From positions 1,410 to 65,409 of the forward strand of contig CAYWVV010000008.1 of the NCBI GenBank assembly GCA_964461805.1: a stretch of 64,000 nucleotides of DNA. Direction: 5' to 3'. Positions 34,809 through 57,813 of the stretch are shown here, in pieces. Made by a program: the position numbers and the translations under genes. The notes under the pieces are model-generated. The model was given only the letters and a program-made list of their open reading frames with translations, searched no databases and was not told the origin of the DNA. The stretch is from an uncultured Flavobacterium sp. GTDB taxonomy: Bacteria > Bacteroidota > Bacteroidia > Flavobacteriales > Flavobacteriaceae. How positions within the stretch are numbered: position 1 is the stretch's first letter; each line of letters starts with the position of its first letter.

Positions 34809-34916
34809 TAGCTTCAGAGTTATAGTCACGCAGATTTAAAAGATTAAAAGGAGTTCAATGCAAAGTTTGTCATGCTGAAAGCATCTCACACAATCTAATT
34901 CCACAATCTTGATTTA

Positions 34917-34953
34917 ATAACCCTCGTAGGATTTTAAATCCTACGAGGGTTAT
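34917..34953. repeat. Long perfect hairpin (REP-like or terminator) between convergent genes
   Basis: ataaccctcgtaggattt/aaatcctacgagggttat are ~16-18-bp perfect arms with no strong U-tract. Neighbouring small hairpins: atgct-gaa-agcat and ggatttgcaatcc. Confidence 0.6.
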
Positions 34954-34997
34954 TAAATCCTATAACCGATATCGCGGATTTGCAATCCGTGCACATT

Positions 34998-36128
34998 TTA
35001 ATCAAACTCATTCAATCCATATAAAATCTCTTTCATTTTAGTGCCGTTAATTTCCACAGGTTTGTAAGCAATATTGAATTTATCAATGGCCACATCAATA
35101 TCTGCTTTGAGTTTTTTATATTCTAAAGGTAATTTAGTTTCACATTGTTTTTCGTTTTCGTAGCTATTTAAAATCACCTTAAACTTTTCATAGAATTTGC
35201 CACCTTGATCAATGAAGTTGTTATACATGCTAATAAATTGCAGTAGTCTATCAATAGGAAATTCTAAATTGACTTGCATTTTATATTGTTGCGTGCCTGT
35301 TGCCGTTTTCATTTTAGATAAATACTCCTCCATTTTTATAGTAACATTTTCCCAATCGTCATTGGTTCTACATTGTTCCAAAGTAGTGAAGTAATTTATG
35401 GGTTTGGTGTAATCTTTAAATAAAATTTCTATTTCGCTTTTCATTTTTTCATTGCTTTTTTGTAGAAAAGCCGTTTCAAAATAAATAGTATTTAAATCGT
35501 TTTGCATGCGTAAGGTGAAATCTAAAATACATTCTATATTACCAAGTTCTTTTTCTTTTTCATCTTTTGTTAATGATGAATTAAGCATATTTGTAAACGT
35601 TTGAATCACAGAAACAAATGTGTTTGTTCCTAAAATAGAAGTTAAGTCTAAACCTGTTTTTTTGTCTTTTTTAGAAGCAACTAGGTTTTTTAATTTTTCA
35701 AATTCAGGATACTGATTCGGATTCGAAATTTTATGGATCTCGTTAAAAGTTCTTATAGAAGCAAAGTGATGATCTAAACTCAAAACTTTTTCATATAAAA
35801 TCTTGATTATTTGTAAACCTTTTATATACCTAATCTTAGAGATATCACCAGAATTATCTTTTAGTAATTGTTTAATTTCAGAGTTAATTAGGTCTTTTTC
35901 AATTAATAGTTCTACTTTCTTTTTTGTTTTATGTGTAGCAAGAAGCGAATTATTAATGGTTTCCATTTTTTCAATTTTACGGTTAATTAGAGCTTCATAC
36001 TTTAAATTGATTGAACTTATTTCTAAAAGTAATTCTGTAATGATACTATTGGGATCTTTTTCTAAGTCGTTTGAAAACGCATAACTACAAAATAGAAATA
36101 TAAAGTATGTTAGAAAGCGTTTTTTCAT
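34998..36128 (-). CDS. Hypothetical secreted, predicted all-helical protein
   Basis: Signal peptide MKKRFLTYFIFLFCSYAFS. 376 aa, Lys/Glu/Leu-rich. No domain recognised. Confidence 0.6.
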   Translation of the reverse strand: MKKRFLTYFIFLFCSYAFSNDLEKDPNSIITELLLEISSINLKYEALINRKIEKMETINNSLLATHKTKKKVELLIEKDLINSEIKQLLKDNSGDISKIRYIKGLQIIKILYEKVLSLDHHFASIRTFNEIHKISNPNQYPEFEKLKNLVASKKDKKTGLDLTSILGTNTFVSVIQTFTNMLNSSLTKDEKEKELGNIECILDFTLRMQNDLNTIYFETAFLQKSNEKMKSEIEILFKDYTKPINYFTTLEQCRTNDDWENVTIKMEEYLSKMKTATGTQQYKMQVNLEFPIDRLLQFISMYNNFIDQGGKFYEKFKVILNSYENEKQCETKLPLEYKKLKADIDVAIDKFNIAYKPVEINGTKMKEILYGLNEFD

Positions 36129-36138
36129 AGTTTTAGAT

Positions 36139-36603
36139 TTAAATTTTACTAAATAGTTTCAATAGGATTATTGCTTTGTTATCAAAAAGTTTTATTGGAT
36201 ACATCCCACTTTTTATGGTTGGGTTTTTGGTGGTTATCTTTAAAAGATTTATGGTTTCAGAATTCAATGAAAAGTCATAATCTTGGTTAAAGTAGAATTT
36301 TTCTATTTCTGAAATAGTTTTCATTTCTTTTCCAAAAAGAAATTTTTGATCTTCAATTGTAAGCGCATCTGTTTTGATTGTAAGTTGTAATTCCGTTTCA
36401 GAAATTTTTAATAAATAAAACTTCTCTGCACTTGTATTTTTAGTAGTAGTCTCAATTGTACATAAACCTATTCCGCCTTTGCATTCTCTTCCTCTAATAT
36501 CAATTTCGAATTTATTTTCAGTTGTTTGCGCATTAATGATTACACTAAATAGTATCAATATGATTGTTGTGATTTTCATTTTTTTAGTTTTACTATGGTT
36601 CAC
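36139..36603 (-). CDS. Small secreted protein, CxGxGxC paralog A
   Basis: Signal peptide (an alternative start at 36579 gives MKITTIILILFSVIINAQ). IDIRGRECKGGIGLC motif; paralogous to 38425..38877. Confidence 0.55.
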   Translation of the reverse strand: MNHSKTKKMKITTIILILFSVIINAQTTENKFEIDIRGRECKGGIGLCTIETTTKNTSAEKFYLLKISETELQLTIKTDALTIEDQKFLFGKEMKTISEIEKFYFNQDYDFSLNSETINLLKITTKNPTIKSGMYPIKLFDNKAIILLKLFSKI

Positions 36604-36621
36604 ATTATTTTAATGTTTTTT

Positions 36622-36653
36622 AAAAAAGCGGTAAAATTTGTTTTACCGCTTTT
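36622..36653 (-). terminator. Hairpin with A/T runs inside the minus-strand gene set
   Basis: agcggtaaaa-tttg-ttttaccgct flanked by an A-run and a T-run. Lies just upstream of the 36603 gene. Confidence 0.5.
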
Positions 36654-36888
36654 ACTACTTAACTAAACAATTTAAACAAAACTCAACACGATTTTAAAAG
36701 CTCTTCATTAATTAGTAGATTAATTTGAGATCTAAAAGAGGTAGTTTTTTTTTGATTCAAGTTGAATTTTTTTTGAAATGTCTTAACATTTCAGGGCATA
36801 TATTTTAAAAAAAAAAGATCCATTTTAATGTTGAATGGCTTATATAAAATGTTGTTTTTTCGTCTGGATCTTTTTTTACTATATTTAT

Positions 36889-37662
36889 TTATTGTTGTAA
36901 ACTGATTTTATAACCAAGTTTTTGAAGACTATCTTTGATACCAACAAAATGATTTTTGCCATAAACAATGGCTATTTTAGCATTCTTGTTTTGATTGATT
37001 TTGTTTATAACAACACCATTTCTATAATGTGTAATAAACTCGTTAAACATTTGTTTGTCAATTTTATTCTTGCATTTATTTCGATCATAATTGTCAAATA
37101 GTTTTGTTTTTAAGTCGTACTCTTCAAGAATTATGTTTCCATATTTATTTTCATAGGCTCTTATCAATTCATCCATAGTTGCGTCTACATTTTCAGACAG
37201 CTTATTTTTCAAGCCTAAATCGGTTAAATTCGATTGAGGGACAAGGTTTTTTTTGATTTTAATTCCTTTTTCTTTAAAAAATTCGATATAATTTGTAGCA
37301 CCTTTTGCTGATAGACCTAATAAACCGAAAGCTTTTCTGAATTTTAAAATCATGGTTGTATCCATTATTTCTTGTATACTTGAATCATTACTTTTCATGT
37401 TATTTGTGAGTATCATTTCATAAAAAATTTTATACTTTAAATTTGTCAAAGAGTCTACTTTCTTTCTGACGTTTTTATAAAAATTTTCTTTTCCAATATG
37501 ATGCATTGGAATAATGATTATTTCATTTTCTCCTACTAATTTTTCAATCTTAGAAGTTTCATCATAAATTCCTTCTCTTTCAAAAAAGTTGTTCATAAGA
37601 TATGATTTGCAAGAAGTGGATACCAATGAGGTCACAGTTAAAAATAAAAGTAATTTTTTCAT
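36889..37662 (-). CDS. Lipoprotein, possibly TraB/GumN-family
   Basis: Lipobox VSTSC. IIIIPMHHIGKENFY and IAIVYGKNHFVGIKDSLQKLGYKI resemble the GTxHxG ... GxxHxxG...L...GY pattern of TraB/GumN proteins. Weak, by eye only. Confidence 0.4.
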   Translation of the reverse strand: MKKLLLFLTVTSLVSTSCKSYLMNNFFEREGIYDETSKIEKLVGENEIIIIPMHHIGKENFYKNVRKKVDSLTNLKYKIFYEMILTNNMKSNDSSIQEIMDTTMILKFRKAFGLLGLSAKGATNYIEFFKEKGIKIKKNLVPQSNLTDLGLKNKLSENVDATMDELIRAYENKYGNIILEEYDLKTKLFDNYDRNKCKNKIDKQMFNEFITHYRNGVVINKINQNKNAKIAIVYGKNHFVGIKDSLQKLGYKISLQQ

Positions 37663-37766
37663 ATAAAAATATTAGAATTAGAAACTTTTAAATTGATTTT
37701 AAATTTTAAGATTTTAGTCAGATTTATTAATTTATTATACTTTCTTGAGGTAATTAAATTTATTTG

Positions 37767-38372
37767 CTAAATTTTAAAAGCATTTAATATTTCTTTTTTT
37801 TCATCATTGTTTAGTTCCCAACTTTCTTGTAAATCATAATTTATTAAATAGTAATTTACTTTTATTCCTTTTTCTTTTGCTTGTTCTAATAGTTTTATCC
37901 ATTCAAAAGCTTTTTTTTTATTTGTTTTGCCTAAAAAGGTTGCCCAAGTAATTAAAACTGTAATTTCATTTAAAACAATTTCTTTATTTTTATCGTTGCT
38001 TAATAGAGGAATAAAGTCTTTTATGTTTTTGTTCTCAGATTTATTAAAATTTATGTTTTTTAAATCAGTTATAAAATCATCAACTTTTGCATTGCATTTC
38101 TCTGTGTTTTTTTTATAAGGAATAAAATTACCATTTTGATTAAAAAAATACGCATCAGGAATCGTAGAGTATTTTAATTCGTAACCTTTAGCCATTGTGA
38201 TGAAATCTTTAAAAAAATAAATTGATTTAGAATCAACGTTGTTTTTTTTTAAAAAATTATACAATTCATAATTTTTTTTAAAACTTGGATTTTTTATCCC
38301 ATAACTCATTTTTGTTAATGTTTTGCAATTTGTTAATAGGATAAAAAGCAGTAAAAATTGAATTTTTTTCAT
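37767..38372 (-). CDS. Hypothetical lipoprotein
   Basis: Lipobox LLTNC. 201 aa, no motif recognised. Confidence 0.55.
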   Translation of the reverse strand: MKKIQFLLLFILLTNCKTLTKMSYGIKNPSFKKNYELYNFLKKNNVDSKSIYFFKDFITMAKGYELKYSTIPDAYFFNQNGNFIPYKKNTEKCNAKVDDFITDLKNINFNKSENKNIKDFIPLLSNDKNKEIVLNEITVLITWATFLGKTNKKKAFEWIKLLEQAKEKGIKVNYYLINYDLQESWELNNDEKKEILNAFKI

Positions 38373-38424
38373 AGTTAAGAATTTAAATAAAGGTTACTTG
38401 AAAACTCAAGTAACCTTAAGAAAT

Positions 38425-38877
38425 TTAAAATGACACCGTATACAAACCGTTGTCTAATGTTTTAATTGCATACTCACCTTTTTTTATGATATAGCCTCTT
38501 TTTAGTTCTAATTTTTCACATACATTATCTGATAGACTATAATCTTCAGATATTGTTATTATTTCTGAAGAACCGAAGTGTTTTTTTAATATTGTTAATT
38601 GAGTTTTATTAAATTCCAATGAAAAAACTCCATTACCATAGTTTACTCCTGACATTTTATTGTCATCAATTTCTATTGAAACATCTGCATCACAAACTCC
38701 AAAGCCTTTGCAATCCTTTGATTTTCTACCCCAAGTAATATCAATGTTAATTCTTACTTTTAAGGTTTCAACAGTTGTGATTTTTAACTCAGGATTGGAA
38801 TTAGTCTTTAAGCTATTTGCATTTCCGCTAACACTTAACATTACTGTGGCAATTAAGCCAAATACCATTTTTTTCAT
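38425..38877 (-). CDS. Small secreted protein, CxGxGxC paralog B
   Basis: Start moved from 38988 to the internal ATG at 38877, giving signal peptide MKKMVFGLIATVMLSVSGNA. IDITWGRKSKDCKGFGVC motif. Confidence 0.55.
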   Translation of the reverse strand: MKKMVFGLIATVMLSVSGNANSLKTNSNPELKITTVETLKVRINIDITWGRKSKDCKGFGVCDADVSIEIDDNKMSGVNYGNGVFSLEFNKTQLTILKKHFGSSEIITISEDYSLSDNVCEKLELKRGYIIKKGEYAIKTLDNGLYTVSF

Positions 38878-39137
38878 TATATTTGTTTTTTTAAAATTAA
38901 TTGCAGTCAACTTAAGTACGCCAATACTGTTTATAAGTTCGACTGCTTTTTTTATAGTTGGAAATTTCGATATTAAAAGCAAAGCCAACTTTCTCTTTAC
39001 TCCTAATAAACAGTTTTTAAGAAATCTGATAATTCTATTTTTAGTTCATCATTTCTACTTGCAAGTTTTTTATTCTGAACATTGCAAAGAAATGGGAATT
39101 GCAATATAGAAAGCAAATTATCTAAGTCTGTTTTCGA

Positions 39138-39156
39138 GAATTTCGAGTCGAAATTC
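39138..39156. promoter_or_regulatory. Palindrome gaatttcga-g-tcgaaattc upstream of the TPR/AraC gene
   Basis: Perfect 9-bp arms. Embedded in tttcgag/tttcgag and cgaaatt/cgaaatt direct repeats (39131-39165). The same arms recur at 41001-41020. Confidence 0.4.
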
Positions 39157-39276
39157 CGAAATTTCATTTACTAGTGTGTTTAAGTTGTTGATATACAGTG
39201 GTTAAATTTAAATAAAATATTTTAGCTCAAACATAAGAAAAACATTACTTTTGGCTTTTTTTTAAATATTTATATA

Positions 39277-40968
39277 ATGAAAAGATGTTTTTATCTAAGC
39301 CTTTTGAGTTTTATACTCTTTACTTTTAAATTACAAGCACAAAATTTTAAAAAACCTCTTAACTCATTATCTTATGATGAATTGAAAGAAATTTTTTTTA
39401 AAAATGAAGGAAATATTGAAATTCAAAAAAAATATGCTAAAGCTTTTTTGAATAAAGCTAAAAACGAAAATGATACTCCAAAGATAGCTAGGGGTTACTA
39501 CTACTATTCCCTTTTATTTAGTGATAATAGAAAAATTGTTTATTTTGATAGTATTATTAACAATGTAAAATATCCACCTAGTGAAAAGAATTTTCCTTTT
39601 GTAGCTTATTTGGAAAAAGGGTATTTTTTAGCAGATAAGTATAGGTATAATGAAGCCATTAATAGTTATTTAGAGTTAGAAAAACTCGCTATTTCCAAGA
39701 ATATAAATTATTATTACAAAGCAAAATTTGCTATTGGTATTTTGAAGTCTGAAAAAATGGGAGAGGTTAAAGAGTCTCTTCCGTTATTTAAGGATTGTTA
39801 TTCTTTTTATAAGAGTCAAAAAAATAATTCAGAATTGACTTTTACCTATCAACTTTCAATATTTGCTTTGGCAGATTCTTACAAATCTTTAAAAAAAACG
39901 GATAGTTCTTCTTATTATAATAAGTTAGGTTATTTTGAAACTAAAAGATCCAAAAATGAATACTTAAACAATATTTTTATTCTTAATGAAGGAGCAAATC
40001 AAGTATTGGTAAATAATTTTAAGGCAACTTTAGATAGTGTTGAAAAAGCTTTACCATATATAATTAAGAATAAAGATAATAACAATACATTAGCCTCTTA
40101 TTATTACAGAGCGAAAGCTTATCAAGGTTTAGGAATTAAAATTAAAGCTTTAGAAAACTATAAAAAAGTCGATTCATTGTATAAGTTAAATTCTTTTATT
40201 TCTCCTGAATTTTCTGATGGATATAAATTTATAATTGATTATTATAAAGAGATTGGTGACAAAGAAAATCAATTAAAATTTTTAACAACTTATCTTGAAA
40301 TTCAAAACCGATTTCAAAAACAATATAAAGAATTATCTGTGAAACTTAAAAATGATTATGACTTGCCCAATCTAGTAAAAGATAAAGAGACGTTAATTAA
40401 ATCATTAAAAACAGACGAGAAAAAACACCTTTGGTTAATCATTTTTCTAATTGGTTTGGCCATATCTTTCATATCAATCAGTATTTATCAAAACCGATTA
40501 AAGAAAAAATATAAATTAAATTTTGAAAAAATTATCAGTCAAACTTCAAAACCTGAAATTCTTAATGAAGTTGCAATCAATCAGGTTCCAAAAAAAGAAA
40601 GCATGCTTTCAAGTAGTTTAGTAAAGGACATAACTGAAAAATTAGAAAATTTTGAAAAGGAAAAGTTGTATAAAAAGCAAGGTCTAAGTAATCAATATTT
40701 GGCAAACGAATTCAGTACAAATACGAAATACTTATCATTAGTTATCAATGAATATAAAAACAAAACTTTTATTAATTATATTAATGATTTGAGAATTGAT
40801 AATATCATTGAAGAACTAAAAGAAAATAAAAATCTCAGAAAATATACCATTGCTGCATTAGCAGAAGAAGCAGGATTCAATACGGCAGAATCCTTTTCTA
40901 ATGCCTTTTATAAGCGAACAGGATTAAAACCATCATTTTTTATTAAAGAATTAAGTAGTGTTAAATAG
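39277..40968 (+). CDS. Membrane-anchored TPR-repeat / AraC-family HTH regulator
   Basis: Signal peptide, ~370-aa TPR-like repeat region, TM helix LWLIIFLIGLAISFISISIY, C-terminal AraC HTH (YTIAALAEEAGFNTAESFSNAFYKRTGLKPSFF). Confidence 0.75.
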   Translation: MKRCFYLSLLSFILFTFKLQAQNFKKPLNSLSYDELKEIFFKNEGNIEIQKKYAKAFLNKAKNENDTPKIARGYYYYSLLFSDNRKIVYFDSIINNVKYPPSEKNFPFVAYLEKGYFLADKYRYNEAINSYLELEKLAISKNINYYYKAKFAIGILKSEKMGEVKESLPLFKDCYSFYKSQKNNSELTFTYQLSIFALADSYKSLKKTDSSSYYNKLGYFETKRSKNEYLNNIFILNEGANQVLVNNFKATLDSVEKALPYIIKNKDNNNTLASYYYRAKAYQGLGIKIKALENYKKVDSLYKLNSFISPEFSDGYKFIIDYYKEIGDKENQLKFLTTYLEIQNRFQKQYKELSVKLKNDYDLPNLVKDKETLIKSLKTDEKKHLWLIIFLIGLAISFISISIYQNRLKKKYKLNFEKIISQTSKPEILNEVAINQVPKKESMLSSSLVKDITEKLENFEKEKLYKKQGLSNQYLANEFSTNTKYLSLVINEYKNKTFINYINDLRIDNIIEELKENKNLRKYTIAALAEEAGFNTAESFSNAFYKRTGLKPSFFIKELSSVK

Positions 40969-41000
40969 TTGGTAATTATGTAATTATGTTTTTTAATTAC

Positions 41001-41020
41001 CGAAATTCTTGAATTTCGAG
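41001..41020. promoter_or_regulatory. Palindrome cgaaattc-tt-gaatttcg(ag) upstream of the precursor gene
   Basis: Same half-sites as 39138-39156 in inverted order; shares the 10-mer GAATTTCGAG. Could also act as the regulator gene's terminator hairpin. Confidence 0.4.
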
Positions 41021-41052
41021 AAGCTTTGTTTTATTAAGTAATAGGTAAAAAT

Positions 41053-41060
41053 TAGGTTTG
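41053..41060 (+). promoter_or_regulatory. -7 box (TAggTTTG) for the precursor gene
   Basis: TAnnTTTG match, 25 nt before ATG 41086. Confidence 0.4.
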
Positions 41061-41085
41061 CAGTCTAAACTTAAAAACTTAAAAA

Positions 41086-41247
41086 ATGAAAAAAGAAAAA
41101 AAATTCACATTGGAAAAATTTGAAGTTGCCAAATTAAAAAATTTGAAAAAGATCATTGGAGGAGATGTTACAAATGATGGCGGTACAGTTTTTACTACTA
41201 CAGATCTAACTAGTGTTAATAAAGATGGTTCAAATGGTAATTGTTAG
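41086..41247 (+). CDS. RiPP precursor peptide (GG-type leader + Ser/Thr-rich core), not in ORF track
   Basis: Manual translation gives MKKEKKFTLEKFEVAKLKNLKKIIGG-DVTNDGGTVFTTTDLTSVNKDGSNGNC*. Has its own promoter box, lies 12 nt upstream of the first S8 gene, and is followed on the same strand by the LanB genes. Confidence 0.65.
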   Translation: MKKEKKFTLEKFEVAKLKNLKKIIGGDVTNDGGTVFTTTDLTSVNKDGSNGNC

Positions 41248-41259
41248 TTTAATAAATTT

Positions 41260-42924
41260 ATGATATATATATTGAGGTTGGTTTTTCGATTGGTTGTTTT
41301 TGTTTGTCTATTATCATCTTGTGGTTCAAAGAAAAAAGTAGTTATAGATTCTAAATTCTATACTGAAAATTGGCATCACTTTGATTTTGAAAAAGACAAA
41401 ATTTACGGAATTTCATTACAAAAATTGTATAATGAAAACACCGTCAAAAAGAATTCAAATTCGATAATTGTTGCTGTTTTAGACACTCAAATAGATTTAA
41501 ATCAAGAAGATTTAAAAGATCAAATTTGGGTAAATAAAAAAGAAATTCCAAACAATAATATTGATGATGATAAAAATGGTTACGTTGATGATGTTAATGG
41601 ATGGAATTTTGTAGGAAAACCTGATGGAGGGTATTTTTCATATGGGAATTTCGAGTATACTAGATTTGTAAAAAAGTGGGATGTTTATTTTAAAAACAAG
41701 AAAACTGTTGGAGTAGATTCTTTGGAAGTTTTTGAAGAATATAAAAGAGCACAAGCAAAACTAGAGAAGTCTATTAAATATTATACTGGTTGGAAAAAAT
41801 CTTTAGATTTTAGAATTAAACATTATCAACTTGTTGAAGATACAATTAATTATTTTTTTCCAAAAAAAGATTACACAGTTGCCAAATTAGATAGTTTGTA
41901 TCAGAAATTTAAAATTAATGATAAAACTTTTAAGCAAAGAAGAGATGATAATGATTTGGATTTGGGGGCTTTAATTTATTATAAAAAAACTGATTTTGAA
42001 ACAGGTATAAAAGTTATTGGGGACCATATAGATCCGAGCAATCAATTTGACTCAATCATTAATAAAAACTTAAACATCAATTTTGTTGATAGAGAAATGA
42101 TTAAAGATAATCCAAATAAGTTAGAAAAAGGTTATGGGAATAATAAGTTAAATCTGTATAAAAATTTAAATTACCATAGTACGGTAGTTTCCGGTACTAT
42201 TGCAGGTATAAGAAATAATAACATTGGAGTAAAGGGTTTTCATGATAATATTAAGATAATGCCATTAAGTACCTCGATTTCTGGCGACGAGCATGATAAA
42301 GATATCGCTAATGCCATTTATTATGCAGTTGATAACGGAGCTAAGATTATTAATATGTCTTTTGGTAAAGAATTTTCTCTAGAAAAAAAATGGACATTTG
42401 ATGCTTATAAATATGCAGAAGAACATAATGTTTTAATTGTTCATATTTCAGGAAACGACAAGTTTGATATTGATAAAAACCCATATTACCCAAATGATAA
42501 TGATTATATCAATAAAAAAGAAATAGTTGGTAATTTTATTAATGTCGGATCTATATCTAAAAGAACAGATAGTACAATGGTTTCAAAATTTTCTAATTAC
42601 GGTAAAGAAAATGTTGATATTTTTGCGCCAGGTGAAGAAATTCATGTTGCGAAACCTTATAATGAATATGGCTATGATTCTGGGACTTCACTAGCAGGGC
42701 CAATGGTTTCTGGAACTGCAGCTTTAATTTGGTTATATTATCCAAATCTTACCGTTCATCAAGTGAAAAATATAATTTTAGAATCGGGTATAACAATTGA
42801 TAAAATGGTTGTTAAACCTGGGACAAAAGAAGAAATGGTTCCGTTTTCGGATTTATGTAAAACGGGTAAAGTGTTGAATACTTATAACGCTATGCAATTG
42901 GCTAAAAGAATCAGTAAGAAATAA
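41260..42924 (+). CDS. S8 (subtilisin-like) serine peptidase lipoprotein, copy 1
   Basis: Lipobox LLSSC. Catalytic Asp (VAVLDTQID), His (HSTVVSGTIAG), Ser (GTSLAGPMVSG). DDDKNGYVDDVNGWNF Ca-binding-like insert. Confidence 0.85.
   Translation: MIYILRLVFRLVVFVCLLSSCGSKKKVVIDSKFYTENWHHFDFEKDKIYGISLQKLYNENTVKKNSNSIIVAVLDTQIDLNQEDLKDQIWVNKKEIPNNNIDDDKNGYVDDVNGWNFVGKPDGGYFSYGNFEYTRFVKKWDVYFKNKKTVGVDSLEVFEEYKRAQAKLEKSIKYYTGWKKSLDFRIKHYQLVEDTINYFFPKKDYTVAKLDSLYQKFKINDKTFKQRRDDNDLDLGALIYYKKTDFETGIKVIGDHIDPSNQFDSIINKNLNINFVDREMIKDNPNKLEKGYGNNKLNLYKNLNYHSTVVSGTIAGIRNNNIGVKGFHDNIKIMPLSTSISGDEHDKDIANAIYYAVDNGAKIINMSFGKEFSLEKKWTFDAYKYAEEHNVLIVHISGNDKFDIDKNPYYPNDNDYINKKEIVGNFINVGSISKRTDSTMVSKFSNYGKENVDIFAPGEEIHVAKPYNEYGYDSGTSLAGPMVSGTAALIWLYYPNLTVHQVKNIILESGITIDKMVVKPGTKEEMVPFSDLCKTGKVLNTYNAMQLAKRISKK
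42604..42907 (+). repeat. 304-bp perfect direct repeat, copy 1 (3' end of S8 gene 1)
   Basis: Compared block by block with 44264-44567: identical. Flanking mismatches at 42603/44263 and 42908/44568. Confidence 0.95.
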
Positions 42925-42931
42925 TAAATCG

Positions 42932-44587
42932 ATGAGAAAAATTTTGTTTTTATTGTTGCTTTTTATTTCGTGCTCAACCAATAAAAAATTTGTAGCACCT
43001 AATGATTCTAATTTTGTCAATAAAAATTGGCAGCATCAAGTTTCAGAAAACAATAGTGTTAAAAGCACATCTTTGCAGAAATTTTATTCCGAAAAATTTA
43101 AAAAAAGTACTTTAAACTCAATAATTGTCGCTGTTTTAGACAGTCAAATAGATTTAAATCATGAAGATTTAAAAGATCAGATTTGGGTAAATACGAAAGA
43201 AATAGCCAACAACAATATTGATGATGACAACAATGGATACATAGATGATGTTAATGGTTGGAATTTTATAGGAAAACCAAATGGGGGTTATTTTAGATAT
43301 TGGAATTTTGAATATTCGAGAATTGTTAGTTTAAAAAAAGAATATTTGAAATTAAATATTAAAACACCTTCAGATTCTTTGCTTTTTTTTAATGAATATT
43401 CGAAAATTGATGAAAAACATAAAGAGGAATTAGTTTATCATAAAAATTGGTTCAAATCATTAGAATATGCAGTAAAAATTCGATCAAAAGCCATAGATAC
43501 TTTAAAGTATTTTTTTCCAAAAGGAGATTATACTTATGAACGATTAGATAGTTTGTACCAAAAAAGTAAATTAAATGAAAAAACATTTAAACAAAGAAGA
43601 GATGCTAATGATGAAGATTTAGGGGCTTTAATAAATTCTGTGATGATAGCTATTCAAATGGGGCTTAAACAAAATGAACAATTATTTGAATTAAAAAATC
43701 AATTAGATTCTATTGTGTTTAGAAATTTAAATATTGATTTTGATGACAGAAAATATATTTGTGATAATCCTGATATTTTAGAAAAAGGGTATGGTAATAA
43801 TAAATTGAATAGTAACATATATCAATTAACTCATTCTACAGAAGTTTCATCAATTATAGCAGGACAAAGAAACCAAATTGGAGTAAATGGATTTCATAAT
43901 AATATTAAAATAATGCCTTTATGTATTTCTACTTCTGGAGATGAGTACGATAAAGATATTGCTATGGCAGTATATTATGCTGTGGATAATGGTGCTAAAG
44001 TGATTAATATGTCTTTTGGAAAAGAATTTTCATTAAATCAAAAATGGGTTTCTGACGCTTTTAAATATGCAGAAGAACACAATGTATTGTTAGTGCATGG
44101 TTCGGGTAATAATAGTTTTAATGTTGATAAGAATTCCTATTATCCAAGTGATATTGATTATGTGAGAAATAAAGAAAAAGAAGTAGTAGCCAATTTTATT
44201 AATGTAGGTTCCGTTTCGAAAAGAACAGATAGTACTATGGTTTCTCCGTTTTCTAATTATGGGAAAGAAAATGTTGATATTTTTGCGCCAGGTGAAGAAA
44301 TTCATGTTGCGAAACCTTATAATGAATATGGCTATGATTCTGGGACTTCACTAGCAGGGCCAATGGTTTCTGGAACTGCAGCTTTAATTTGGTTATATTA
44401 TCCAAATCTTACCGTTCATCAAGTGAAAAATATAATTTTAGAATCGGGTATAACAATTGATAAAATGGTTGTTAAACCTGGGACAAAAGAAGAAATGGTT
44501 CCGTTTTCGGATTTATGTAAAACGGGTAAAGTGTTGAATACTTATAACGCTATGCAATTGGCTAAAAAAATTAGTAAGCAGAAATAA
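42932..44587 (+). CDS. S8 (subtilisin-like) serine peptidase lipoprotein, copy 2
   Basis: Lipobox LFISC. Asp (VAVLDSQID), His (HSTEVSSIIAG), Ser (GTSLAGPMVSG). Tandem paralog of copy 1. Confidence 0.85.
   Translation: MRKILFLLLLFISCSTNKKFVAPNDSNFVNKNWQHQVSENNSVKSTSLQKFYSEKFKKSTLNSIIVAVLDSQIDLNHEDLKDQIWVNTKEIANNNIDDDNNGYIDDVNGWNFIGKPNGGYFRYWNFEYSRIVSLKKEYLKLNIKTPSDSLLFFNEYSKIDEKHKEELVYHKNWFKSLEYAVKIRSKAIDTLKYFFPKGDYTYERLDSLYQKSKLNEKTFKQRRDANDEDLGALINSVMIAIQMGLKQNEQLFELKNQLDSIVFRNLNIDFDDRKYICDNPDILEKGYGNNKLNSNIYQLTHSTEVSSIIAGQRNQIGVNGFHNNIKIMPLCISTSGDEYDKDIAMAVYYAVDNGAKVINMSFGKEFSLNQKWVSDAFKYAEEHNVLLVHGSGNNSFNVDKNSYYPSDIDYVRNKEKEVVANFINVGSVSKRTDSTMVSPFSNYGKENVDIFAPGEEIHVAKPYNEYGYDSGTSLAGPMVSGTAALIWLYYPNLTVHQVKNIILESGITIDKMVVKPGTKEEMVPFSDLCKTGKVLNTYNAMQLAKKISKQK
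44264..44567 (+). repeat. 304-bp perfect direct repeat, copy 2 (3' end of S8 gene 2)
   Basis: See copy 1; offset is exactly 1660 nt. Confidence 0.95.
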
Positions 44588-44589
44588 TA

Positions 44590-46809
44590 ATGAAAATAAA
44601 CTCTGTTGGCTGTTTTGATACTTTTGTATTGCGAACGCCTTTGTTTCCCATAAATTATTATACTAATCTTCTTAAAGATTATTCAAGCGATAAGTTGTAT
44701 GAGGTTTTAGAAAATGATCTTGTCAAAGATGCTGTTAAAATTGCTTCTCCTGAACTTCTAAGAGAATTGGAGAAGTTGTCGAATAATCCAAATCAAATTG
44801 ATCCCGATAAAAAAATAAATTTAGAGTTAGCCTTGTTAAAATATATAGCAAGGCTTTCTTCTAGAGCTACACCTTTTGGGGTTTTTGCTGGTTGTACTAC
44901 TGGTTTTCTAGCAAATGAAACTTTCATTCAAATTGATTCTGTCGAAAAGCATGAAGTTTTTACGCAATTTGACATGCATTATTGGATTAGTCTGCTACAG
45001 GATATTTCTAAAAATGCTTCTTTTCAAAAGAATTTAATTTACTATCCAAATTCATCATTGTATAAAATCGCCGATTTTTACAGATACATCGAATATGAAT
45101 ATGTAAATAAAAAAAGAGAACATACTTTGTCTTCTTTTAGGGTAAACCCTGTGATAGATACGCTTATTGAGAATTCTAAAATAGGTTTAAAATTCAATGA
45201 ATTGATTGATTTAATTATTGATGATGCATCTGAGATTGAAGAAGCCAGTGAATTTGTTTTGGAATTAATTAATAATCAAATTTTAGTCAGTGAACTTGAT
45301 GCAACGATTACAGGTGGTTTTGATATTAAGAGAGTTGTTGAAATCATTGAAAAAAGTACTGAATTTAATCTAGAATGCAATATTTTAAAAGAAATGTCCT
45401 TGCTTTTAGAAGGTAAAGTTAATCTGACTGATTCAAAAAATCAATTTGATAGTTTAAAAAAGTTGGTCGAGAAATTTGATACAAAATTTGAAGAAAAGTA
45501 TGTTTTGCAAACGGATTTATATAAAAAAACGACTTGCGCTTCATTGAATAAAAAAGTGAGTTTTAAAATTACAAAAGCACTTCAATTCTTAAGTAAAATC
45601 CGAGAAAATAAAGAAAATCCGAACTTAACAAATTTCAAAAATACTTTTCAAAGAAGATATGAAACTAGAGAAATGCCTCTATCTGTCGTTTTAGATTCCG
45701 AATTAGGAATTGGATACCTTCAAAACACTAAAATGAATGATACACATTCTGTATTAGATAAGTTTTCTTTCGATAGTAGTCGGAAATCAAATGCCAATTC
45801 TGAAGAATGGACAAAAACAGATTATATTTTAGAGAAAAAATTAAAAACTGCGATTGCTACTTCTAAAGATATAATTGTATTAGAGGATAAGGATTTTGAT
45901 TTTGTTGAGAAAGAAGATTACAATATACCAAGTACATTTTCTGTAATGGTAGAAATTCTATCTACAAATGAGGAAGAATTTATTGCTATTGAATCATCAG
46001 GCAATTTTAGCGCTGCAAAACTTATTGGAAGATTTTGTAATGGTGACCAAGCCATTCACAATTTGGCCAACGAAATCATTCAAAAAGAAGCGGAGTTACA
46101 CCCAAATAAAATTTTAGCAGAGATTGTTCATATTCCACAATCCAGAACGGGAAATGTATTAAGACGACCTTGTTTACGAGAACACGAAATTCCATATTTA
46201 GGGAATAGTGTTTTGCCAAAAGCTAAACAAATTGCTATAGAGGATTTGTATGTGTCAATAAAGAATAATAAAGTGGTTTTAAAATCGAAGTCACTTAATA
46301 AAGAAATCATTCCTTGCTTATCCAATGCACATAATTATTCCTATAATTCGTTGCCGATATACCATTTTCTGTGTGATTTGCAAGGGCAATCATTGCATTG
46401 TATTCCAAGTTTCAGTTGGGGGATCTTAGAAAATCATCATGCCTATTTTCCGAGAGTTGTCTATTCTGGTATTGTCCTATCAAAAGCAAAATGGGTATTT
46501 GAATATATAGAACTTGAAAAATTCGCTAAAGCAATATTCACAAGTGCATTACAAAACGAGTTTATAGTTTGGAAAGAAAAGATGAAATTGCCACAATATG
46601 TGAATTTAGTAAATGGTGATAACACTTTGTTGTTAGATTTGAATATAGAAATTGGAATACAATTATTTTTAAAAACTATTAAACCCAACTCGAAAATAAT
46701 TTTAGAAGAGTTTTTGTTTGATGATAATTCTGTAGTTAGAGATAAAGATTATAATTCGTTTGCTAATCAGTTCATTTTATCCTTTTATAAACTGCATAAA
46801 AATGAATAG
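44590..46809 (+). CDS. Lantibiotic dehydratase, N-terminal (glutamylation) part of a split LanB
   Basis: 739 aa. FVLRTPLFP at the N-terminus and RLSSRATPFGVFAG are the conserved LanB N-domain motifs as I recall them. Starts 2 nt after the S8-2 stop. Confidence 0.8.
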   Translation: MKINSVGCFDTFVLRTPLFPINYYTNLLKDYSSDKLYEVLENDLVKDAVKIASPELLRELEKLSNNPNQIDPDKKINLELALLKYIARLSSRATPFGVFAGCTTGFLANETFIQIDSVEKHEVFTQFDMHYWISLLQDISKNASFQKNLIYYPNSSLYKIADFYRYIEYEYVNKKREHTLSSFRVNPVIDTLIENSKIGLKFNELIDLIIDDASEIEEASEFVLELINNQILVSELDATITGGFDIKRVVEIIEKSTEFNLECNILKEMSLLLEGKVNLTDSKNQFDSLKKLVEKFDTKFEEKYVLQTDLYKKTTCASLNKKVSFKITKALQFLSKIRENKENPNLTNFKNTFQRRYETREMPLSVVLDSELGIGYLQNTKMNDTHSVLDKFSFDSSRKSNANSEEWTKTDYILEKKLKTAIATSKDIIVLEDKDFDFVEKEDYNIPSTFSVMVEILSTNEEEFIAIESSGNFSAAKLIGRFCNGDQAIHNLANEIIQKEAELHPNKILAEIVHIPQSRTGNVLRRPCLREHEIPYLGNSVLPKAKQIAIEDLYVSIKNNKVVLKSKSLNKEIIPCLSNAHNYSYNSLPIYHFLCDLQGQSLHCIPSFSWGILENHHAYFPRVVYSGIVLSKAKWVFEYIELEKFAKAIFTSALQNEFIVWKEKMKLPQYVNLVNGDNTLLLDLNIEIGIQLFLKTIKPNSKIILEEFLFDDNSVVRDKDYNSFANQFILSFYKLHKNE

Positions 46810-47683
46810 AGTTTTTAGTTTAGGAAGTGAATGGGTATATTTTAAAATATATGCCGGTTATAAAATTTCCGAAGTCATTCTTTTGGATTACTTGAATGAG
46901 AAAATCGAGTTGTTGCTTACGGAAAATGTAATTAAAAAATGGTTTTTTATTCGCTATAACGATTCGGATAGCCATATTAGAATTCGATTTCAATTGAATA
47001 ACAATGAAGATGTTTTTCAAATTATAAAAGAACTCAATCCTGTTTTTGAAGATTTGTTGCAAAAAAATTTCATCTGGAAAGTTCAAAACGAAACCTATTT
47101 AAGAGAAATAGAACGCTACGGTTTAAATACTATGGAAGATTCTGAAACGTTATTTTATTTTGATAGTAAAATGATAATGGACTATTTAGTTTTGAAAAAT
47201 GATTTCCAAAATGAGAAAACTCAGTTGCTATTTAGTTTCCTTTCTATAGATGCTTTTTTAAATGCATTTTCTTTGTCAACTTCAGAAAAAGTAATATTTT
47301 TTGATGATTTACAGCAAGGATTCAAAAAAGAATTTAATGCTACAAAAGTTTTAAAAAGCGAATTAGATAAACATTATAGAGGATTTGAAAATGAGATTTC
47401 AAATTGTATGAATGCAATTTCAAATCATGAATTATTACCGCTTTATGAAATAATTGAAAAAAAATCCTGCAACATAAATCCTGTTGTTCAAGTAATCAAA
47501 CAAAACTTAGAAATCAATTTAAATGCCTTTCTTTCCAGCCACATCCACATGATGATAAACAGGCAGTTCACTTCTCGTCAAAGAGAATACGAAACCCTAA
47601 TTTATGATCATTTGTATAGGTATTATAAAACGTGTTTTTATAGGAATACTTATACTATTAGTTTAATTAATGCTACTACATAA
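46802..47683 (+). CDS. Split-LanB C-terminal (SpaB_C / thiopeptide-type bacteriocin biosynthesis, glutamate-elimination) domain protein
   Basis: Start set at ATG 46802 (MNRVFSLGSEWVYFKIY...), overlapping the upstream stop as ATGAATAG. WFFIRYNDSDSHIRIRF is typical of this domain. The track start at 46760 would be an unlikely 14-aa extension. Confidence 0.75.
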   Translation: MNRVFSLGSEWVYFKIYAGYKISEVILLDYLNEKIELLLTENVIKKWFFIRYNDSDSHIRIRFQLNNNEDVFQIIKELNPVFEDLLQKNFIWKVQNETYLREIERYGLNTMEDSETLFYFDSKMIMDYLVLKNDFQNEKTQLLFSFLSIDAFLNAFSLSTSEKVIFFDDLQQGFKKEFNATKVLKSELDKHYRGFENEISNCMNAISNHELLPLYEIIEKKSCNINPVVQVIKQNLEINLNAFLSSHIHMMINRQFTSRQREYETLIYDHLYRYYKTCFYRNTYTISLINATT

Positions 47684-47706
47684 ACTTAAGTTCTTACTTG
47701 ATTTGA

Positions 47707-47736
47707 CGCTACCGCGCGAATCCTTTCGCGTGGTTT
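47707..47736. repeat. REP-like hairpin, left (cgctaccgcgcgaatcctttcgcgtggttt)
   Basis: Imperfect internal palindrome ccgcgcga/tcgcgtgg. Inverted partner lies downstream of the RAYT. Confidence 0.7.
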
Positions 47737-47761
47737 TCTAATAATTATTTAAACATAATAA

Positions 47762-48328
47762 ATGAGTAGAAATTATAAATTCCATAATTCAGAAGGTGTT
47801 TATTTTGTAAGTTTCGCAGTTGTAGGTTGGTTAGATGTGTTTACAAGAAATGAATATAAAGATTTGATTATTGAAAGTTTAGAATTTTGTCAACAAAGTA
47901 AAGGAATGGAAATACATGCTTGGTGTATTATGACAAATCATGTACATTTGATTTTTAGAAGTGTTGAGAATCAAAAACCTGAGCTTTTATTAGGTGATTT
48001 TAAAAGATTTACAAGTAGAAGTGTCATTAAAGCAATACAGGAAAACTCCAAAGAAAGTAGAAAAGAATTTTTATTAGATTATTTTAAAAAAGAAGCTAAA
48101 AAAACTTCTAATACGAGTAATTTTCAATTTTGGCGACACGATAATAAACCAATAGAATTATGGAGTAACGAAGTAATACAACAAAAAATCAATTATATCC
48201 ACAATAATCCAGTTGAAGAAGGAGTTGTATTTAGACCTGAAGATTATAAATACAGTAGTGCATCAGACTATGCCAGAGAAAATGGTTTATTGGGTAATGT
48301 TGTAGTGTTTCAGTATTTTAAATTATGA
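47762..48328 (+). CDS. REP-associated tyrosine transposase (RAYT, IS200/IS605-like Y1 HUH)
   Basis: 188 aa. HUH motif MTNHVHLIF and C-terminal catalytic-Tyr region PEDYKYSSASDY. Confidence 0.8.
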   Translation: MSRNYKFHNSEGVYFVSFAVVGWLDVFTRNEYKDLIIESLEFCQQSKGMEIHAWCIMTNHVHLIFRSVENQKPELLLGDFKRFTSRSVIKAIQENSKESRKEFLLDYFKKEAKKTSNTSNFQFWRHDNKPIELWSNEVIQQKINYIHNNPVEEGVVFRPEDYKYSSASDYARENGLLGNVVVFQYFKL

Positions 48329-48521
48329 AACCACGCGAAAGGATTCGCGCGGTAGCGGGGATAATAGTGTTTCAGACCCTGAAGAAATCAGAGCTGTTTA
48401 TAATCAAAATAGAGCTCGAGCACTTGAAGGAAGAGTCCCAAAAACGACATATGCTCAAGAAAGGATTGACCCTAAAAAGTTACAGAATCCACCAAATAAT
48501 AAAAACATAATGATTAAATAA
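48306..48521 (+). pseudogene. Possible 3' gene remnant with no start codon, stop overlapping the next ATG
   Basis: Frame is open 48306-48518 (...SDPEEIRAVYNQNRARALEGRVPKTTYAQERIDPKKLQNPPNNKNIMIK*) with no ATG near its 5' end. Its TAA (48519-48521) overlaps the ATG at 48521. A second frame (track ORF 48325..48510) is also open. Confidence 0.25.
48329..48357. repeat. REP-like hairpin, right (aaccacgcgaaaggattcgcgcggtagcg)
   Basis: Begins at the nucleotide after the RAYT stop codon. Confidence 0.7.
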
Positions 48522-56268: not shown

Positions 56269-56445
56269 TGTGATCGTGTTACAAAAGTTTCAATTGGTTT
56301 TAGTACTTAAACGCTAAGGAATTCAAAATATTGTTTCCTGAAAATTCTTGGTTTTTAGAGTTTATTCCGCCATAAAAGTAAAATTTTAATTGTAAAGTGT
56401 AACATTTTTTTGAAAAATTGGTCAAATAGGAAAATAATAATTATA

Positions 56446-57813
56446 ATGAAGTCAGTACAAGTAGTTTTTGTATTATTTTTAGTAAGCGCTGTGTCTTTTG
56501 CCCAAGAAAAAAAATGGACATTAAAAGAATGCATCAATCATGCTGTAAAAAATAATATTTCAATAAAACAGTCAGAATTAGATTTACAAACTACCGCCAT
56601 TTCTAAAAAAGATGCGATAGGTAATTTTCTACCCACTTTAAATGGAAACGCCTCTCACGGTTGGAATTTCGGATTTAGTATCAACCCAATTACTAACGAC
56701 AGAACCAATCAAACGAATCAATTTTCTAGTTTTGGTTTAAATGGTGGTTTTGATGTTTATAAGGGTTTACAGAATGTCAATCAGTTGCGAAAAGCGAATT
56801 TGTCTATCATTGCATCGCAATATAAATTGACAAAAATGCAAGAAGATGTAGCTTTAAATGTGGCGAATGCGTATTTGCAAATCTTGTTTAATAAAGAAAA
56901 TTTGAAAGTACAAACTGTGCAAAATTTATTAGATACAAAACAGTACAATAGAACCCTTCAATTGGTAGATGCTGGAAATGTACCTAAAGGCGATTTGTTA
57001 GACATCCAAGCTACAATGGCATCAGGAAAACAACGTGTTATTGTTGCTGAAAATGCTTTGATGTTGTCAAAATTAAGTTTAGCCCAATTACTACAAATTC
57101 AAGATTTTCAAAATTTTGATGTGTCAGATAGTGATATTCCAACTCTATTGTCTACTATTTTAAATGAAACACCAGAAGCAGTAATTGCTAAAGCCAAAGA
57201 AAGTAGAACAGAATTAAAATTAGCGAAAGCCAATTTAGAAATTGCTAACAAAGACATTCAAATTGCAAAAGGAGCATTTCAACCTTCTCTAACTGTAAAT
57301 TATGGTTTAAATTCAAATATAAGTTACAATAAAATACCTTTTTTAAATTCAGGAACCGGACAAATAGATTACAACAGAGCGAGTCCGTTTTTTAAACAAA
57401 TGGAAAATAATTTTGGTCAAAACATTGGAATTTCTTTAAATATCCCAATATTTAACGGATTTGCAACTCGAAATAATGTACAAAGAAATAAAATAAATTA
57501 CGAAAAAGTAAAACTAAACCTTTCACAACAAGAATTAGATGTGGAACGAAATGTTTTTACAGCTTATACCGATACAAAAGCAGCTAAAGAAAGTTATGAA
57601 GCCGCTTTACAAATTGAAAAAGCTCGTGAATTAGCGATGCAATACGCAAAAGACAGATACGAAATTGGAATGATGAATATTTTCGATTACAACCAATCAC
57701 AAACTGCTTTCGTTAACGCACAATCAGAAGTTTTAAGAACCAAGTACGATTATATTTTTAGAATTAAAATTTTAGAATTTTATTTCGGAATTCCACTTAT
57801 AGAAAAACAATAA
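56446..57813 (+). CDS. TolC-family outer-membrane efflux protein
   Basis: Start moved to ATG 56446, giving signal peptide MKSVQVVFVLFLVSAVSFAQ. Two OEP repeats, with the typical LTLKECINHAVKNN opening. Confidence 0.8.
   Translation: MKSVQVVFVLFLVSAVSFAQEKKWTLKECINHAVKNNISIKQSELDLQTTAISKKDAIGNFLPTLNGNASHGWNFGFSINPITNDRTNQTNQFSSFGLNGGFDVYKGLQNVNQLRKANLSIIASQYKLTKMQEDVALNVANAYLQILFNKENLKVQTVQNLLDTKQYNRTLQLVDAGNVPKGDLLDIQATMASGKQRVIVAENALMLSKLSLAQLLQIQDFQNFDVSDSDIPTLLSTILNETPEAVIAKAKESRTELKLAKANLEIANKDIQIAKGAFQPSLTVNYGLNSNISYNKIPFLNSGTGQIDYNRASPFFKQMENNFGQNIGISLNIPIFNGFATRNNVQRNKINYEKVKLNLSQQELDVERNVFTAYTDTKAAKESYEAALQIEKARELAMQYAKDRYEIGMMNIFDYNQSQTAFVNAQSEVLRTKYDYIFRIKILEFYFGIPLIEKQ

Follow-up and report, generated by a model that had tools for sequence, protein, structure and literature searches.

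Lanthipeptide-like gene clusters of class I type without LanC: a conserved, apparently uncharacterised family in Flavobacterium

We analysed a 64-kb stretch of DNA (hereafter the window) from an uncultured Flavobacterium sp. (GenBank assembly GCA_964461805.1, contig CAYWVV010000008.1), in which a cluster at 39277–47734 consists of a gene for a regulator with TPR, transmembrane and AraC parts, followed by an operon for a precursor peptide with a double-glycine (GG) leader, two S8 peptidases and the two halves of a split LanB dehydratase (LanB-N and LanB-C). The cluster belongs to a real, conserved and apparently uncharacterised branch of class I-type biosynthesis of peptides made by the ribosome and modified after translation (RiPPs) that has no LanC. 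We propose that this is a Flavobacterium-wide family whose lanthipeptide-like products would be made by class I dehydration chemistry without that cyclase, and we regard the proposed pathway as a whole as evenly balanced between right and wrong. An earlier note, made from the letters of the window alone, had placed every open reading frame (ORF) of the cluster where we found it, and the gene identities it had assigned are borne out. The sequence comes from a metagenome contig of 120 kb (ENA ERZ3430520). All genes lie on the + strand: the regulator (39277–40968), the 53-aa precursor (41086–41247, a 26-aa leader MKKEKKFTLEKFEVAKLKNLKKIIGG and a 27-aa core DVTNDGGTVFTTTDLTSVNKDGSNGNC), the lipoprotein peptidase S8a (41260–42924, Peptidase_S8 E = 2e-42), its paralogue S8b, also a lipoprotein (42932–44587, E = 2e-44), the 739-aa LanB-N (44590–46809, Lant_dehydr_N E = 6e-129) and the 293-aa LanB-C (46802–47683, Lant_dehydr_C E = 2e-62; TIGR03891 E = 1.5e-60). 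From the precursor gene to that of LanB-C the intergenic spacing is 12, 7, 2 and −8 nt, and thus the genes form a tight operon; the ATG of the LanB-C gene overlaps the stop codon of the LanB-N gene (ATGAATAG), as had been noted before and as the ORF coordinates imply.

The split LanB looks catalytically competent by alignment with enzymes of known function. LanB-N matched Lant_dehydr_N over profile positions 2–645 of 649, and the best solved relative of both halves was MadB (E = 2.5e-42 for LanB-N). When compared with the residues listed as essential in NisB and MadB (PMC12241602), the glutamylation residues R88, R92, T94, D128, D309 and R481 of LanB-N align with R89, R93, T95, D128, D308 and R483 of MadB and are invariant in 24 family members, and the elimination residues R62, R105 and H249 of LanB-C align with MadB R822, R864 and H1005. 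The check for lost catalytic residues that the earlier note had called for thus found all nine kept across the two halves. LanB-N is predicted to be the half that glutamylates Ser and Thr with glutamyl-tRNA, and LanB-C to be the glutamyl lyase half of the canonical anti-elimination type. Arg and His separate anti- from syn-glutamate lyases (PMC9486935), and because both are present in LanB-C, (Z)-dehydrobutyrine (Dhb) and dehydroalanine (Dha) are the expected products. We also considered LanB-C as a thiopeptide-type [4+2] enzyme and rejected this, since its lyase Arg/Arg/His set is kept and it is the sole Lant_dehydr_C gene present; a second protein of this type, as expected for a pyridine synthase, was not found. 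The arrangement differs from PEARL and small-LanB ligase systems, in which a LanB-N-like enzyme has no elimination partner, whereas here a translationally coupled LanB-C with intact catalytic residues lies directly downstream.

No cyclase gene accompanies this dehydratase. In line with the earlier note, which had looked for LanC motifs between 34.8 and 49.4 kb, LanC, LanM, YcaO, radical SAM, ATP-binding cassette (ABC) transporter and C39-peptidase proteins are absent among the ORFs scanned or annotated across the 64 kb, where Pfam coverage, by scan or by precomputed annotation, reached most ORFs of ≥110 aa; among these ORFs are genes for respiration, transport, sugar utilisation and housekeeping, as well as SprA and a few of no known function. 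A dedicated LanC hidden Markov model (HMM), built from 29 LanC proteins that adjoin distant LanB-N homologues (four of them, when scanned, matched Pfam LANC_like at E ~1e-44 to 1e-50), gave zero matches at E ≤ 10 in all stop-to-stop frames of ≥50 aa, searched in six frames. Neither YcaO nor nitroreductase was found among the window ORFs scanned or the annotated neighbours of related loci. Two candidates were rejected: a 391-aa ORF at 18476–19651, considered as a hidden LanC-like barrel, matches Glyco_hydro_100 and lies among sugar-utilisation genes, and the OEP and HlyD genes at 56410–59143, considered as an exporter, have no ABC or C39 gene alongside, the next gene matching the TsaD family.

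The absence of LanC is shared by a whole clade. Scanning genomes and metagenomes and looking up gene contexts yielded 94 loci, viewed to about 10 kb on either side, whose ORFs were labelled by BLAST against the window proteins and by the LanC HMM; individual loci are given below by L numbers. Three gene orders were distinguished, 13 incomplete contigs being left out of the classes. Locus type A (regulator, precursor, protease or proteases, LanB-N, LanB-C) comprises 32 loci including the window, with LanB-N ∼45–83% identical to that of the window; the closest named relative is Flavobacterium facile, at 83%. Locus type B (LanB-N, LanB-C, regulator, precursor, sometimes an S8 or S9 peptidase) comprises eight loci at 35–39% identity, and locus type C (LanC, LanB-N, often LanB-C and C39-ABC, some with HlyD) comprises 31 loci at 34–39%. 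Types A and B together make up the 40 LanC-less loci, a class whose definition required a regulator gene next to either the precursor gene or the two LanB genes. When 84 LanB-N proteins were placed in a neighbour-joining tree, types A and B split from type C in 55 of 60 bootstraps, and type A, which has the gene order of the window, was monophyletic in all 60. In the 31 sister loci a LANC_like gene lies within the locus, usually directly upstream of LanB-N, and no canonical LanC was found within ∼10 kb in any of the 40 LanC-less loci. Hence the lack of LanC is an inherited trait of the clade and not an accident of assembly; moreover, the check for co-occurrence of the same parts across relatives, also asked for earlier, shows that the window cluster is no singular oddity.

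Some relatives carry further RiPP-type genes nearby. A LanC-like match in L022 was rejected as the missing cyclase: it is one half of a neighbouring split LanM-like pair (2416–5419) that directly precedes the regulator gene. The pair is made up of a DUF4135 protein (593 aa, E = 2e-88) and the LANC_like protein (403 aa, E = 2e-54), where other residues stand in the places of the zinc-binding Cys/Cys/His (AWSHG, FFNGSSG). In L032 (∼1195–9400) a second, inverted split LanB pair adjoins the LanC-less cluster together with two GG-leader precursors of three Cys each (FTSIFSCSASNGDRSCC...), and no LanC was seen with this pair within the fetched stretch. In L007 (14420–16617) the split LanB is followed ∼1.4 kb downstream by genes for an ATP-grasp-like and a SPASM-domain protein, which probably form a separate grasp-with-SPASM peptide cluster.

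The claim that no exporter is present holds for the 64-kb window and fails for the relatives, since a C39-ABC gene lies within 10 kb of at least seven locus-type-A relatives, often with HlyD, Rce1-like immunity proteins and genes for unmodified GG-leader bacteriocins. An unlinked C39 transporter is therefore the simplest explanation of the GG leader in the window. Arrays of unmodified GG-leader bacteriocin-like peptides, divergent from the regulator gene, were seen in L008 (2300–3923), L009 (652–5728) and L011 (4999–5202), accompanied by Rce1-like (CPBP) proteins, a thioredoxin-like protein and C39-ABC/HlyD exporters; thus the LanC-less module often stands beside a classical bacteriocin locus.

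The precursors point to the same loss of cyclase from the substrate side. The window precursor has conserved counterparts in related loci and 23 homologues in databases, and across more than 50 homologues the leader is conserved (consensus KKFxLEKFxVAKLKNLKxIxGG) while the core is hypervariable. Class I LanA leaders of Bacteroidetes have the motif LxLxKx5L and end in GG (Walker et al., PMC7268733); the window leader, FTLEKFEVAKL...GG, fits this closely, with Phe in place of the first Leu. The window core DVTNDGGTVFTTTDLTSVNKDGSNGNC has eight Ser/Thr and a single, C-terminal Cys, as described earlier, and a multi-ring class I lanthipeptide is impossible, as the earlier note had concluded, since one Cys allows one ring at most. 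At least four unrelated core types occur among the LanC-less loci: type A, that of the window (TV[FY]TTT ... GS-x-x-(x)-C), type B (..ITDILRRLSSNVC), type C (..LPTLTVSVNGQGYSNKC), and further types such as DDPIDTN...SSxxC and Cys-free KTITD cores; these letters are not equivalent to those of the locus types. A universal core motif was sought and rejected, for TxTD/ITD is common yet missing from the DDPIDTN-type cores. Cores from LanC-less loci contain a median of 1 Cys each, and those from LanC-containing loci a median of 5 (range 1–13; Mann–Whitney p = 9e-13). Eight cores of locus type A have no Cys, nineteen have one, four have two and one has three; all 23 database homologues of the window precursor have exactly one; and 10 of 60 LanC-less cores are Cys-free with the enzymes kept.

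The position of the remaining Cys follows a simple rule. Of the 53 Cys in LanC-less cores, 46 are preceded by a Ser at −3 or −4 and none by Thr alone at these positions, although Thr is 2.3 times commoner than Ser in these cores (15.2 and 6.5%) and the chance expectation of such an upstream Ser is only ∼13%. The same test on LanC-containing cores gave 23 Ser and 35 Thr-only among 167 Cys. In the window core the Ser is at −4 (S23–C27). We infer that Cys, where present, pairs with a Ser-derived Dha as a small ring, the pair in the window being S23–C27. Dha is a more reactive Michael acceptor than Dhb, so that such a ring could close without a cyclase. Of the two products suggested in the earlier note, a linear poly-dehydrated peptide thus suits the Cys-free members, and a single large thioether macrocycle is disfavoured because the Ser–Cys spacing points to a small ring. 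We also considered a C-terminal aminovinyl-cysteine ring and rejected it, there being no LanD and most family members continuing past the Cys: 1–35 residues follow the last Cys in 33 of 50 Cys-containing LanC-less cores (the window core ends at Cys), and no HFCD/LanD flavoprotein decarboxylase was found among the window ORFs scanned or in the annotated related loci.

These results bear on two alternative products. Possibly the cluster makes an ordinary class I lanthipeptide, whose single lanthionine ring is closed enzymatically by a LanC that, like a LanT, has its gene at another place in the genome. LanC-containing Bacteroidetes clusters have the same type of leader; an exporter, which the GG ending implies, is missing from the 64 kb and near in relatives, so unlinked components do occur in this system; and unclustered lanthipeptide maturation genes are documented (PMC8960859). 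We consider this alternative unlikely, though worth taking seriously, because LanC lies within the locus in all 31 sister loci and never within ∼10 kb in the 40 loci of the LanC-less clade, and because its loss coincides with the drop in median core Cys from 5 to 1, with Cys-free members and with a Ser-only upstream partner, a pattern that would not be expected if a normal LanC were still acting. The other alternative is a purely linear poly-dehydrated peptide with no thioether, its Cys being free or otherwise used, as in a disulfide-linked dimer or a later conjugation. That 10 family members are Cys-free means that dehydration is the family-wide modification and the thioether is not, and dehydration with the same enzymes suffices in those members; no cyclase is present; and the split LanBs of goadsporin and thiopeptides make Dha that is kept in the final product without LanC. 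Nevertheless a Ser 3–4 residues before 46 of 53 Cys, in unrelated core types and against a Thr-rich background, is hard to explain without a Ser–Cys interaction, and a thiol so near to Dha would be expected to react, and hence we regard a linear product from the window core as rather improbable.

Expression of the cluster is probably controlled by the adjacent regulator. Its HTH_18 match covers residues 475–555 (Pfam, E = 5e-12), and it has a single strong hydrophobic segment at 385–403 as well as an N-terminal signal-like segment. No Pfam TPR match was obtained for the window's own copy; TPR_12 was matched in 28 of 32 regulator homologues from related loci, and the family profile matches solved TPR proteins. 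The earlier description of a TPR/TM/AraC regulator thus stands in the window copy for its transmembrane helix and AraC helix-turn-helix (HTH), and for TPR through homologues and the family profile only. The protein is predicted to be a membrane-bound one-component regulator with a periplasmic TPR-type domain of ∼360 aa, one transmembrane helix and a C-terminal AraC-type HTH. The TAnnTTTG box reported earlier at 41053–41060 (TAGGTTTG, + strand) is present 25 nt upstream of the precursor ATG, and its T, A and TTTG positions are invariant across six aligned loci; TAnnTTTG is the Bacteroidetes-type −7 promoter element. Thirty-five bp upstream of this box lies a candidate operator, the palindrome CGAAATTCTTGAATTTCG (41001–41018), which is perfect in the window and whose two 8-bp arms are nearly invariant in the six loci, with regulators 42–83% identical; only L015 differs, at a single position of the left arm. 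Conservation of the arms is thus one of sequence, compensatory changes being absent, and we infer that the regulator binds there. A sigma-70 promoter scan gave 59 sites against 59.7 expected, the sigma-70 model being uninformative for Bacteroidetes.

This regulator could also be read as a receptor, with the mature peptide a self-signal that is matured by the proteases and sensed in the periplasm by the TPR domain, like the peptides of Gram-positive TPR receptors. The regulator and precursor genes are adjacent in both family gene orders, the predicted location of the TPR domain is the periplasm, as for the proteases, the cluster lacks any outer-membrane component for export, and there is a weak match between the regulator profile and the TPR region of RapF, a peptide-binding protein (E = 4e-5). 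That match is, however, generic TPR similarity, and RRNPP receptors are cytoplasmic, with an N-terminal HTH, a C-terminal TPR domain and a re-imported peptide, whereas the window regulator has the reverse order (TPR, transmembrane helix, AraC HTH) and a TPR domain predicted to be extracytoplasmic. Moreover, the periplasmic domain is 85–89% identical to those of F. bernardetii and F. facile, which have type-B cores, and 74% identical to that of L016, which has a type-A core; there is therefore no receptor–ligand covariation, which weakens the reading as a pheromone receptor. Since hypervariable cores beside bacteriocin and immunity genes also suit antagonism better, we hold self-signalling to be improbable.

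Between precursor and LanB-N lies a slot for secreted proteins that varies across the family. Within locus type A it holds S8 in 26 of 31 distinct loci, in 1–3 copies, and an S9 prolyl oligopeptidase in five, where S9 stands alone in L005, L011 and L030; L013 has a secreted DinB/MST-like protein instead, and the slot of L032 is empty. The twin S8 genes that the earlier note took as characteristic are thus not a defining trait, the slot holding 0–3 S8, an S9 or a DinB-like protein. S8a and S8b begin with lipobox-like signals (..LLSSC and ..FISC), and the S9 oligopeptidases and the DinB-like protein also start with signal-like sequences, and therefore the slot step would occur after export. The catalytic triad D75/H306/S477 and the oxyanion N399 of S8 are invariant in 44 homologues, and only ∼50 residues separate the lipobox Cys from the catalytic Asp. 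An AlphaFold2 model of S8a (pLDDT 80) has a conserved, confidently modelled all-helical insert at 132–281, between the catalytic Asp and His; Foldseek with the S8 model found compact subtilases that cover about half of the model (TMq 0.31–0.47) and do not inform on the insert. The slot protein of L013 (F. jejuense, 8347–9477) is a 376-aa secreted protein with a C-terminal DinB/mycothiol-S-transferase-like domain (MST E = 4e-6), and with such a thiol-transferase fold beside a dehydratase, Dha/Dhb could receive a thiol once outside the cytoplasm.

The S8 genes appear to move together with the precursor. S8a is 84% identical to S8 of L016 (type-A core) and 61 and 70% to those of L003 and L004 (type-B core; L004 is F. 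facile), and the order is reversed for S8b (65% to L016, 77–82 and 74–77% to L003 and L004), for LanB-N (71%, then 79 and 83%) and for the regulator (73%, then 82 and 83%). Hence S8 subtype tracks core type and not LanB phylogeny. S8b is 68% identical to S8a; its orthologs are found in F. facile and F. bernardetii, where type-B precursors are followed by one S8 only. This contrast between S8a, S8b and LanB-N marks the window cluster as a recombinant; on these identities, a cassette of type-A precursor plus S8a is best read as having recombined ahead of a resident S8b, whose cognate precursor is gone from the window. An intermediate is preserved in L006, where both the precursor and the S8 gene occur twice and the second core is joined in frame to a piece of LanB-N: its 183-aa ORF at 7479–8030 joins the first ∼147 residues of LanB-N to a leader end and a type-B core (..KKIKGGVGDPIPPNDHEITDIIKRLSSNVCQ), and looks like a recombination scar of precursor-plus-S8 cassette exchange between clusters. 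Within the window, S8a and S8b agree throughout their last ∼124 residues (42515–42924 compared with 44175–44587) save the final few, the remainder being about 60% identical, and the DNA is 94% identical over 42515–42814 and 44175–44474, indicating recent gene conversion between the tandem copies.

Because S8 subtype and core type are co-inherited, these comparisons suggest that what each S8 recognises in its substrate is the core side and not the conserved leader. During maturation of cytolysin (CylA) and lichenicidin (LicP), cleavage by a C39 transporter is followed by an S8 protease, and so a GG leader and an S8 protease are not contradictory. The earlier proposal that S8 enzymes remove the leader in place of an exporter-fused protease is not favoured here, since the C39-ABC genes of relatives argue for C39 cleavage first and S8 trimming second. 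That the S8 or S9 enzymes would instead be transpeptidases which macrocyclise the peptide, like PatG or POPB/PCY1, is very improbable: both enzyme types belong to families containing RiPP macrocyclases, the PatG capping insert occupies the same topological position as the helical Asp–His insert of S8, and the NCBIfam PatA/PatG protease model matches weakly (E = 4e-20), but its score of 72 bits is far below the cut-off of 421, ordinary subtilases (deseasin, SUB1) and not PatG are the best matches in sequence and structure, and the window core, like many others, ends at Cys with no follower peptide.

Taken in order, the proposed pathway would run as follows. The TPR/AraC regulator would activate the promoter TAGGTTTG, probably via the palindrome, to drive preA-S8a-S8b-lanBN-lanBC. 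In the cytoplasm, as judged from the conserved catalytic residues, LanB-N would bind the leader and glutamylate core Ser and Thr with Glu-tRNA(Glu), and LanB-C would eliminate glutamate to give Dha and (Z)-Dhb. Following the family-wide Ser-x-x-(x)-Cys rule, Cys27 would then add to Dha23 to form one small C-terminal lanthionine ring, spontaneously or through an activity that we do not recognise, and the Thr-derived Dhb, including those of the TTT run, would remain as dehydroamino acids. Relatives with an adjacent C39-peptidase ABC transporter suggest that the GG leader would be cut during export by one encoded elsewhere. Outside the cytoplasm, S8a would trim the variable Asp/Asn/Gly-rich N-terminal spacer, as its co-inheritance with core type suggests, S8b probably being a leftover of recombination. 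We favour a role of the product in competition between bacteria, because the cores are hypervariable and bacteriocin loci lie beside relatives.

Several points weigh against this pathway. Dehydration, ring and trimming are all deduced from sequence. A LanC may lie elsewhere in the genome, the view being 64 kb here and ∼10 kb flanks in relatives, and since the exporter is evidently unlinked, other unlinked partners are plausible too. The Ser–Cys rule rests on related sequences, though these span at least four unrelated core types. If a tripartite C39-ABC/HlyD/outer-membrane protein system secreted the peptide straight outside, a periplasm-facing lipoprotein would not meet it. L032 has no slot protease, and so trimming is not obligatory. 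A wider version of the proposal is more tentative still, and we think it possible but on balance doubtful: a genus-wide cyclase-independent lanthipeptide branch that arose by a single loss of LanC, with cores remodelled to 0–1 Cys that pair only with Ser-derived Dha, the ring closing spontaneously or by an enzyme not recognisable as a cyclase, maturation outside the cytoplasm by core-specific 'capped' S8/S9 enzymes that travel with the precursor as exchangeable cassettes, and control by a TPR/AraC sensor. If true, this branch would be a new lanthipeptide-like class with its own biosynthetic logic.

Comparison with known systems places the family near, and outside, several of them. Pinensin-type loci (PinB1/PinB2/PinC) and LanC-LanBN-LanBC-C39 ABC-HlyD loci share the split LanB, a similar GG leader, a homologous LanB-N (34–40% identity) and the phylum, but have LanC, usually C39-ABC/HlyD in cis and cores richer in Cys, whereas the window family has no LanC and adds the TPR/AraC regulator and secreted S8/S9 enzymes. 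As a class I lanthipeptide cluster, the family matches in its LanB halves and leader and lacks LanC in cis, with at most one ring from the window core. Split LanBs of thiopeptide, goadsporin and azole systems likewise make dehydroamino acids without LanC and have an elimination half matching TIGR03891, but those of the thiopeptide/azole groups are defined by YcaO, azoline dehydrogenase and often pyridine synthase (Table S6 in PMC9486935), none of which occurs in the window. With LanP-type leader peptidases the window S8 shares the fold, the intact Asp/His/Ser triad and the oxyanion Asn. Class II systems with CylA or LicP are alike in the GG leader and would be alike in an extracellular S8 that removes a further N-terminal stretch, and differ in having LanM, an in-cluster transporter and prodomain proteases, the window S8 enzymes being lipoproteins with a short pre-Asp stretch and a 150-aa helical insert.

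The view of the earlier note that this is not a characterised RiPP family agrees with the full-text literature searched, in which this architecture is not described; that search did not extend to the DeepRiPP paper, Caetano 2020 or Bothwell 2021. Merwin et al. 2020 reportedly described deepflavo and deepginsen with DeepRiPP. Reviews list these lanthipeptides with Flavobacterium ginsengiterrae and Chitinophaga strains as sources (PMC8358304, PMC7369419); they resemble the present family in being lanthipeptides and in a Flavobacterium source, and, known via reviews only, with clusters and sequences not compared, they are a lead and no test. Group 33 of the glutamyl-lyase similarity network is given as 'split LanB' only, with no other class-defining enzyme (Table S6 in PMC9486935), and may be the LanC-less family, the table line being without taxon, precursor, protease, regulator or product. 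The mining of PMC7268733 began from LanC-like proteins and therefore could not have found it. More generally, lanthipeptide mining has largely been LanC-baited, so that a LanB-only family, present though it appears to be in many Flavobacterium species and metagenomes, would be systematically missed. If the ring does form without a cyclase, it would be a natural case of sequence context (Ser over Thr, i to i+3/4) replacing an enzyme. The family would also offer reagents, namely compact dehydratases for Dha/Dhb peptides and secreted, apparently core-specific S8/S9 peptidases, and an evolutionary example of one clean LanC loss tied to substrate remodelling and accessory-gene change.

The surroundings of the cluster have features of their own. 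Downstream of LanB-C, a G+C-rich hairpin followed by TTTTCT (47711–47734, + strand; fold energy −20.2 kcal/mol, z −4.2) is the likely operon terminator and is also the left REP-like arm flanking the gene of a REP-associated tyrosine transposase (RAYT; 47762–48328, Y1_Tnp; NCBIfam REP_Tyr_transpos E = 3e-26). This gene is flanked by 36-nt G+C-rich inverted repeats (47707–47742 and 48322–48357) that are 94% complementary, and it is found at the same position in F. facile (L004). G+C content is 24–29% over 36000–48000, which covers the cluster and upstream variable genes, compared with 31–35% in much of the remaining window, and the flanks (32724–36128 and 49404 onward) are 79–97% identical to other Flavobacterium species; thus the low-G+C region is a variable island at a fixed chromosomal site. 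Divergent from the regulator, two genes at 38425–38988 (−) and 36139–36603 (−) encode small secreted proteins, with counterparts in L003 (5504–5920), L004 (5495–5944), L005 (4809–5348), L006 (2923–3459) and L013 (5352–5648). Their signal peptides are nearly identical (MKKMVFGLIATV..) and their mature parts unrelated; they could be polymorphic effectors or immunity proteins tied to the cluster. No Pfam or NCBIfam match was obtained, and the two proteins of the window both carry G-R-x3-C-K-G-x-G-x-C.

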